Part shown: positions 2,056-2,366 of the stretch, one piece after another
Layout: each line of letters starts with the position of its first letter
How positions within the stretch are numbered: the first letter of the stretch is position 1
From: a virus
Lineage: Duplodnaviria > Heunggongvirae > Uroviricota > Caudoviricetes
DNA length: 5,651 bases
Virus record (IMG/VR): IMGVR_UViG_2671180430_000009
Location: 1-5,651 of that record
Strand: one strand, 5' to 3'
Translations under genes and position numbers: made by a program
The notes under the pieces: generated by a model
Told to the model about the DNA's origin: nothing
Databases searched by the model: none
Seen by the model: the letters and a program-made list of their open reading frames with translations, nothing else

Positions 2056-2132
2056 GGCCCTTTAGCTCAGTTGGTCAGAGCGAGCGACTCATAATCGCCA
2101 GGTCGCTGGTTCAAGTCCAGCAAGGGCCACCA
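2056..2132 (+). tRNA. ileZ: tRNA-Ile2 (anticodon CAU, lysidine type; decodes AUA), phage-borne
   Basis: Cloverleaf folded by hand: acceptor GGCCCTT/AAGGGCC, D-arm GCTC..GAGC, anticodon loop CTCATAA (CAT), T-arm GCTGG-TTCAAGT-CCAGC, discriminator A, encoded CCA. Anticodon and T arms closely match E. coli ileX as I recall it, rather than elongator tRNA-Met. Confidence 0.85.
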
Positions 2133-2133
2133 A

Positions 2134-2210
2134 CCACCACTAGCTCATCCGGATAGAGCATCAACCTTCTAAGTTGACGGTGCGAGGTTCGAGTCCTCGG
2201 TGGTGGGCCA
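2134..2210 (+). tRNA. argN: tRNA-Arg (anticodon UCU; decodes AGA/AGG), phage-borne
   Basis: Perfect 7-bp acceptor stem CCACCAC/GTGGTGG (C1-G72), D-arm GCTC..GAGC, anticodon stem TCAAC/GTTGA with loop CTTCTAA (TCT), T-arm CGAGG-TTCGAGT-CCTCG, discriminator G, encoded CCA. Same anticodon loop as E. coli argU. The argN name is by analogy with Stx phages. Confidence 0.8.
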
Positions 2211-2212
2211 GC

Positions 2213-2288
2213 GCCGACTTAGCTCAGCAGGCAGAGCAACTGACTTGTAATCAGTAGGTCACCAGTTCGATTCCGGTAGTCGGCACCA
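2213..2288 (+). tRNA. tRNA-Thr (anticodon UGU; decodes ACA), phage-borne
   Basis: Acceptor GCCGACT/AGTCGGC (7 bp), D-arm GCTC..GAGC, anticodon stem ACTGA/TCAGT with loop CTTGTAA (TGT), T-loop TTCGATT with one A.C mismatch in the T stem, discriminator A, encoded CCA. Confidence 0.75.
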
Positions 2289-2291
2289 TAT

Positions 2292-2366
2292 GCGGGCATC
2301 GTATAATGGCTATTACCTCAGCCTTCCAAGCTGATGATGCGGGTTCGATTCCCGCTGCCCGCTCCA
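2292..2366 (+). tRNA. glyT: tRNA-Gly (anticodon UCC; decodes GGA/GGG), glyT-like
   Basis: Acceptor GCGGGCA/TGCCCGC, anticodon stem TCAGC/GCTGA with loop CTTCCAA (TCC), T-arm GCGGG-TTCGATT-CCCGC, discriminator T, encoded CCA. Appears identical or nearly so to E. coli glyT as recalled. Confidence 0.85.

Follow-up and report, generated by a model that had tools for sequence, protein, structure and literature searches.

The window analysed here, by which we mean the whole stretch of 5,651 nucleotides (positions 1 to 5,651 of the IMG/VR record IMGVR_UViG_2671180430_000009, a virus of the class Caudoviricetes), comes from a defective lambda-like prophage of the Shigella/invasive E. coli type. It carries four tightly packed transfer RNA (tRNA) genes, called here the array, between a Q-like late antiterminator gene and the first part of a holin gene. 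The array and the promoter predicted for it are laid out as follows.

Positions 2018 to 2046, plus strand: putative sigma-70 promoter, recognised by conservation, with the -35 hexamer TTGCAG (2018-2023), a 17-nt spacer and the -10 hexamer TATTAT (2041-2046).
Positions 2056 to 2132, plus strand: tRNA of the Ile2 type, homologue of ileZ, anticodon CAU, assigned to read AUA (ARAGORN, Rfam and sequence identity).
Positions 2134 to 2210, plus strand: tRNA-Arg(UCU) on the phage "argN" scaffold (C1-G72, A20, G73), reading AGA and AGG (ARAGORN, Rfam and sequence identity).
Positions 2213 to 2288, plus strand: tRNA-Thr(UGU), a copy of host thrU with the changes T16C and T20C, reading ACA (74 of 76 positions identical to K-12 thrU).
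Positions 2292 to 2366, plus strand: tRNA-Gly(UCC), an exact copy of host glyT, reading GGA and GGG (75 of 75 positions identical to K-12 glyT).

All four genes were found by ARAGORN on the plus strand (anticodons cat, tct, tgt and tcc), and together with Rfam this reproduced in full the coordinates, anticodons and 1-3-nt spacing that a preliminary description of this DNA had given. The spacers measure 1 nt (2133), 2 nt (2211-2212) and 3 nt (2289-2291), and CCA is encoded in each gene. Bit scores for Rfam RF00005 were, from the first tRNA to the fourth, 70.5, 56.4, 69.8 and 64.9 (E from 2e-14 to 1.6e-10), so far over the gathering score of 29 that chance is excluded for all of them. The first gene, with anticodon CAU, had been taken for Ile2, and its body agrees: it is 96.1% identical to ileZ of a 933W-type phage and 89.6% to K-12 ileX, compared with 70.1% to metT/metU, and PGAP names an identical gene tRNA-Ile. 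On this ileX/ileZ-like body and this naming we assign it to the Ile2 type and not to elongator Met. Its acceptor stem, GGCCCUU/AAGGGCC, has C4-G69 and C5-G68, the two pairs that are the TilS determinants of tRNA-Ile2.

The other three genes differ in their ancestry. The second tRNA is closest to a Lys(UUU) allele found in sibling arrays (85.7% identity) and to argN(UCG) of a Stx phage (83.1%), followed by host argU (75.3%) and argO (59.7%). The two substitutions that separate the third tRNA from K-12 thrU are both in the D-loop, and its anticodon arm (ACUGA/UCAGU) is unchanged. By these identities, the array is a mosaic of two old phage tRNAs (ileZ and the argN scaffold) and two copies of host genes (thrU and glyT). 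In the host, the thrU-tyrU-glyT-thrT-tufB operon holds Thr and Gly genes whose mature sequences are identical or nearly so to those of the window, behind a promoter of similar architecture; however, they lie 209 nt apart there and 3 nt apart here, and tyrU, thrT and the host spacers and flanks are absent from the window. We therefore rejected a straightforward copy of the host thrU-tyrU-glyT-thrT cluster, as the mature tRNA bodies alone match, while flanks and order differ. The preliminary description had named an exact host-cluster copy with no enrichment of the cognate codons as one outcome that would count against it. What we find goes halfway: the Thr and Gly bodies are host-derived, but the flanks are unrelated and the codon enrichment, given below, holds.

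The putative promoter was recognised by comparing 60 nt upstream of 116 arrays harvested from IMG/VR and from annotated genomes. TTGCAA or TTGCAG is present in 102 of these and TATTAT in 108, at fixed distances (a 17-nt gap, and 9 nt from the -10 hexamer to the tRNA). The 60-nt upstream sequences form 14 groups that differ at more than 8 positions, and across these groups the hexamers are kept and the spacer sequence is not. In the window, the -10 hexamer ends 9 nt before the first tRNA, and the C-rich discriminator TCTGCCTCC fills the distance between them. The K-12 thrU promoter has the same layout, TTGCAT-17-TAGAAT-GCGCGC, with a GC-rich discriminator. A promoter scan reported TTTGCA-18-TATTAT for the region upstream of the first tRNA. 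A second promoter-like sequence, TCGGCA-16-TATAAT (2280-2307), was rejected, since its TATAAT belongs to the D-arm of the Gly tRNA and is present in host glyT too. The array is thus predicted to have its own promoter, situated between a tR'-like terminator and the first tRNA. The preliminary description had placed the array immediately after the Q-like gene and its terminator; it does lie downstream of both, but not directly, as 87 nt with this conserved promoter intervene.

The surroundings of the array, in order along the window, are these.

Positions 426 to 1025, plus strand: DUF1367 prophage gene (Pfam PF07105, E 2.9e-96).
Positions 1025 to 1315, plus strand: YbcO/DUF1364 putative nuclease gene (Pfam PF07102, E 7.7e-45).
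Positions 1312 to 1866, plus strand: Q-like late antiterminator gene of the DUF1133 type (Pfam PF06576, E 2e-107; Phage_antitermQ, 29.4 bits).
Positions 1938 to 1968, plus strand: intrinsic terminator hairpin AAAGAGCCCGC/GCGGGUUUUUUU (-18.7 kcal/mol, z -4.7).
Positions 2367 to 2548, plus strand: conserved structured trailer of 182 nt (98-99% identical in loci L001, L002 and L003 and in phage phi467).
Positions 2549 to 3790 (right end approximate), minus strand: copy of the insertion sequence (IS) IS600 between the array and the lysis genes (transposase open reading frames and IS600-annotated matches).
Positions 4035 to 4945, minus strand: fragment of IS911 type, with a direct repeat of 300 nt on either side (3788-4087 and 4944-5243).
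Positions 5490 to 5651, plus strand: 5' portion of a dual-start class II holin gene (MYQMEK...), running off the window end (match to the L001 holin).

The assembly collection records the exact Q-like protein in 3,743 of its blocks. Because the annotation of phage 21 shows the order Q, late promoter pR', terminator, tRNAs and holin, we read the hairpin at 1938-1968 as probably the tR' of a late-promoter leader rather than as the terminator of the Q gene. The synteny of Q, terminator, tRNAs and holin is shared by L001, L002 and L003, by 933W-type phages, and by phi467, PPompW, YeP1 and phage 21. No pR' promoter was located between 1866 and 1937, its existence being expected from synteny alone. 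With a promoter of its own, the array could be transcribed independently of Q, in lysogens included, and additionally by read-through from pR' after induction. A permissive Rfam search of 1860-2560 gave two sub-threshold hits over the terminator region, isrK (19.9 bits) and Trp_leader (23.1 bits), which we treated as chance. The isrK match (1893-1966, E 0.064) spans the presumed late leader and the terminator; isrK is an Hfq-binding RNA of the Gifsy-1 prophage. The same search assigned no Rfam family to the trailer, which folds into two long hairpins (z -4.1) and always accompanies the Thr-Gly pair, in the Stx phage phi467 as well. It could serve as a processing site, a terminator or a small RNA.

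The array belongs, as a variant, to the tRNA clusters well known from lambdoid late regions. One close known relative is the ileZ-argN-argO array of 933W-type phages, for which our statements rest on the annotation of Stx2a_F349 (AP012530) and on general knowledge. It occupies the same slot, with Q upstream and stx or lysis genes downstream, has the same promoter (TTGCAA-17-TATTAT), and shares with the window its first gene (ileZ, 96%) and the scaffold of its second (argN, 83%, C1-G72), the homology starting 17 nt upstream of the first tRNA. On the argN scaffold, however, the window has UCU, the anticodon of argO, where the 933W-type array has UCG; and the window has four genes, with Thr(UGU), Gly(UCC) and the 182-nt trailer and no stx, whereas the 933W-type array has three genes ending in argO. 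The preliminary description had seen Thr and Gly in place of the last two of the three 933W-type tRNAs. The shared slot between Q and lysis genes and the relationship of the arrays stand, but ileZ and the argN scaffold are both kept, and argO alone is replaced by Thr and Gly.

Another is the Ile2-Lys(UUU)-Thr-Gly array, which is common among lambdoid prophages of E. coli and also present in deposited phages, for example vB_EcoM-606R7 and PhiR47_1; it has the same order, spacers, Thr and Gly copies and trailer, at 94-95% overall identity. The second tRNA is the most diverged part (85.7%), compared with 96-100% for the neighbouring tRNAs and 98.4% for the trailer, and it bears UUU with C33, an A51xC63 mismatch and U73; its codon, AAA, is not rare. 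Phage 21 carries Asn(GUU) and Thr(UGU) in the same slot, after pR'/tR' and before the holin gene, and so has the same Thr anticodon as the window. Yet its tRNA-Thr21 is identical to the window Thr at 49 of 76 positions and has an altered, shortened anticodon stem (GUCGC/GCGAA) where the window keeps the host stem, and phage 21, unlike the window, has no separate promoter between tR' and the tRNAs. A full-text literature search returned nothing on this array, including under ileZ, argN and argO, and a search on prophage tRNAs and Shigella rare codons returned nothing relevant. Beyond the preliminary description, our analysis brings in the mosaic origin, the change of anticodon seen on the argN scaffold, a predicted promoter belonging to the array itself, and the tight co-occurrence of one array allele with invasive E. 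coli/Shigella.

Our codon analyses used a sample of 42 K-12 genes as the host reference. In this sample the four cognate codons occur at 2.4 (ATA), 1.2 (AGA), 5.4 (ACA) and 6.0 (GGA) per thousand, which bears out the earlier statement that they are A-ending and of low usage. Enrichment over this reference was measured in the intact prophage of strain CFSAN029787, which has an identical array. All four codons proved enriched there, in the late genes, for which the preliminary description had proposed the comparison, as well as in the early ones (p<=1e-4 for each codon): 2.3-fold in late and 4.6-fold in early genes for ATA, 4.7-fold and 7.7-fold for AGA, 2.2-fold and 4.0-fold for ACA, and 2.2-fold and 3.3-fold for GGA. 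AAA was enriched in neither the late nor the early genes.

The mechanism that we find best supported, and to which we give slightly better than even chances, is a self-promoted and Q-boosted operon providing the tRNAs that alone decode four scarce A-ending codons. The array would be a compact polycistronic tRNA operon in the lambdoid late-leader slot, between Q/pR'/tR' and the holin gene, adding copies of the only E. coli decoders of AUA (Ile2), AGA (Arg-UCU), ACA (Thr-UGU) and GGA (Gly-UCC). In the lysogen, transcription from the array's own promoter would be basal; after induction, it would become much stronger as Q-modified polymerase passes tR' on replicating phage DNA. RNase P would release the 5' ends, 3' exonucleases would trim the 1-3-nt spacers down to the encoded CCA, TilS would convert C34 of the first tRNA to lysidine, and host enzymes would add the U34 and t6A37 modifications. 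The larger tRNA pool would then let prophage genes be translated faster, and possibly other acquired genes that are AT-rich. The anticodon loops of all four array tRNAs are those of the host isoacceptors, and this fits simple supply rather than nuclease evasion.

Several results weigh against this mechanism. AGG, CGG, CGA and GGG are enriched too, CGG by 4.6-fold in late genes with no cognate tRNA in the array, and the enrichment is a general rare-codon signal of which the array covers part. Early genes are more enriched than late genes, and the commoner sibling array has a Lys(UUU) gene, for a codon (AAA) that is neither rare nor enriched. The promoter is a prediction with conservation as its one basis. 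Between the array and the holin gene, an automated scan, which also missed the hairpin at 1938-1968, detected no clear terminator, and the only candidate by eye, at about 12535-12555 of L001, is a weak hairpin followed by a T7 run. Some sibling copies are damaged. In two loci of the window's own DUF1133 prophage lineage, L003 (6253-6324) and L160 (2373-2443), the Gly copy, annotated as tRNA-Val, is a broken "Val(UAC)" with C35A, A38G and an acceptor stem that has lost 1 nt, and the Thr copy of L143 and L153 has a 1-nt deletion. Such decay among siblings implies that selection on each single copy is weak.

The same decay bears on a second explanation, that the array is a passenger or remnant. 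On this account it hitch-hikes in a lambdoid recombination hot spot, has no measurable effect in an IS-riddled prophage, and is intact through recent origin or through gene conversion from thrU/glyT. The state of the window lends it some weight. Prophage homology breaks off at 2548, where IS600 starts; IS600 (transposase reading frames at 2592-3410, rve, and 3446-3790, HTH_Tnp_1) and the IS911-type fragment break up the window between array and holin, with about 2.9 kb of IS material separating the array from the lysis cassette. Sibling copies from the same prophage lineage have the disabling mutations just described. In two other chromosomes, L164 and L166, the match to the window stops at position 2126, within the 3' end of the first tRNA and directly upstream of an IS3-family transposase gene, and this small region appears to have been hit repeatedly by IS elements. 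The 100% identity of the array to those of intact prophages is also compatible with recent spread. Against a mere passenger, the promoter hexamers are kept despite diverged spacers and upstream contexts, the slot holds tRNAs in very different lambdoid phages, and invasive strains carry two to five copies per genome. Furthermore, the Gly copy of 14 loci has a compensatory change from C6-G67 to U6-A67, which is what selection on tRNA structure predicts. We regard the passenger explanation as improbable, slightly more so than the nuclease-based one discussed below. Under codon supply, the separation of the array from the holin gene by IS600 and IS911 would mean that any present-day benefit goes to the lysogen and not to the phage.

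The region beyond the array has a history of its own. The direct repeat around the IS911 fragment is 99% identical; a target-site duplication would be much shorter, which suggests that two prophages recombined through IS elements. From 5201 on, the holin region matches another prophage than the array does; in translation the holin agrees with that of L001, and over 5499-5651 the DNA identity is 98%. Positions 1-3687 of the window are 100% identical to two NCBI chromosomes (L162 and L168), in which the arrangement after IS600 differs, and none of the complete E. coli genomes reaches 80% coverage of the window. In the intact CFSAN029787 prophage, a frameshifted ipaH effector gene lies beside the tail fibre genes (L130 6037-7679), and a ParD/ParE toxin-antitoxin pair lies between the lysis and terminase genes (L001 14672-15206).

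Anticodons at this locus are variable. Among 5,426 complete E. coli genomes, 602 have relatives of the array (at least 80% coverage), which are also present in deposited phages; the listed relatives at about 94% identity carry the Lys allele. In an IMG/VR sample there were about 70 arrays of the type Ile2-Lys(UUU)-Thr-Gly and 22 of the type Ile2-Arg(UCU)-Thr-Gly, as well as Ile2-Lys-Arg, Ile2-Arg(UCG)-Arg(UCU) and others. The argN scaffold was seen with UCU, UCG, UUU and UAU, and with a degenerate UUG in a Yersinia phage. The Lys(UUU) allele (L002 8094-8170 and about 70 IMG/VR loci) has the loop CCUUUAA, with C33 replacing the near-universal U33, and an anticodon stem (UCAAC/GUUGA) wholly unlike that of the host; U8C or a deletion in the D-stem is seen in some copies. 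The allele may be damaged, or may encode a Lys tRNA able to escape nucleases that cut tRNA-Lys. In L054, L078, L097 and two other IMG/VR loci, the thrU scaffold has changed from UGU to UUU (G35U) together with A26G, giving arrays of the type Ile2-Lys-Lys-Gly. This G35U change is a natural anticodon switch on a host-derived body. One possibility is that the argN and thrU scaffolds switch anticodon in nature (UCG/UCU/UUU/UAU and UGU to UUU) in response to codon demand or to nucleases.

Nucleases are at the centre of a third explanation, in which the array replaces host tRNAs destroyed by nucleases that restrict lambdoid phages (P2 Old, Gifsy-1 HepS or a PARIS-type Toprim). P2-OLD aborts infection by lambda through cleavage of the host's tRNA-Thr(UGU) at paired CNG motifs within the anticodon stem, and phage tRNA-Thr(UGU) genes, that of phage 21 included, rescue cells from it (PMC12445682). 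The rescuing tRNA of phage 21 therefore provides a precedent in the very same slot (pR', tR', Asn, Thr, holin). Gifsy-1 HepS, which is triggered by the lambda J protein, also cleaves Thr(UGU), as a secondary target (PMC13043305). In addition, sibling arrays carry Lys(UUU), which is an AriB target and an OLD substrate, and each array tRNA is the sole decoder of its codon and hence an ideal nuclease target. Resistance to OLD requires an altered CNG motif and a shorter anticodon stem together (PMC12445682), and rare Thr variants of the array do shorten the anticodon stem and lose the 3' CNG motif, the two reported features. These are G42U/U43C in L003 (6174-6249) and L015, and a similar variant (C42/C43) in L081, with the stem cut to 3 bp.

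The window copy is of a different kind. Its Thr arm, ACUGA-CUUGUAA-UCAGU, is that of thrU, with both CNG motifs, A37 and all 5 bp intact, and host tRNA-ThrU is itself reported to give little or no protection from P2-OLD (PMC12445682). Compared with the nuclease-resistant rescue tRNAs Thr6 and Thr21, it shares the UGU anticodon but neither the altered CNG motif nor the shortened stem, and we rejected it as a homologue of OLD-resistant tRNA-Thr21 at 49/76 identity. As it keeps the host arm that P2-OLD cleaves, the Thr copy is no replacement of the nuclease-resistant kind. The Gly copy and glyT are 100% identical and, with all four anticodon loops those of the host, no resistance-type change is seen; in the papers that we consulted, we found no nuclease that targets Ile2 or Gly(UCC). 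The stem of tRNA-Gly(UCC), UCAGC/GCUGA with A37, in the window and in K-12 glyT alike, has the same paired CNG motif as P2-OLD substrates. Lambdoid phages are under real pressure on tRNA-Thr(UGU), but the window copy is without a resistance-type change, and we consider replacement of cleaved tRNAs unlikely here. The preliminary description had left codon supplementation and replacement of lost host tRNAs side by side; codon enrichment favours supply, and the Thr copy, with its host anticodon arm, is not of the nuclease-resistant type.

The exact UCU allele of the window's second tRNA was found in 10 of 5,426 complete E. coli genomes, with two to five copies in each. In S. flexneri SFBU1023 there are three Arg-type arrays and one Lys-type array. 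The invasion gene ipaB is present in 9 complete E. coli genomes, and all 9 are among the 10 genomes with the UCU allele (Fisher p 9e-28, uncorrected for phylogeny). Relative to the K-12 sample, the codons are 14-fold (ATA), 15-fold (AGA), 4-fold (ACA) and 2.5-fold (GGA) more frequent in 34 genes of the entry region of the invasion plasmid pINV, where the four together account for 8.8% of codons compared with 1.5%. It is conceivable, although we give it little credence at present, that the UCU-bearing array is a lysogenic-conversion module of invasive E. coli/Shigella, which from a constitutive promoter of its own, and in multiple copies even in IS-decayed prophages, raises the pool of AUA, AGA, ACA and GGA decoders and so aids the AT-rich type III secretion genes of the virulence plasmid.

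Two questions have become testable. One, prompted by the tight co-occurrence of the UCU allele with ipaB, is whether the array is linked to the invasion plasmid; the other is whether the Thr(UGU) copy has to do with P2-OLD, a nuclease that targets this very tRNA. Should neither link hold, the array is an ordinary tRNA cluster for codon supply. Behind Q, the tRNA slot is combinatorial and not a fixed "rare-codon" trio, as phage scaffolds change anticodon and host bodies are grafted in. With a promoter of its own, as predicted, the array's tRNAs may be made in lysogens and not in lytic growth alone. Such expression, if true, would bear on how the decoding capacity of pathogens is reshaped by prophages, dead ones included.

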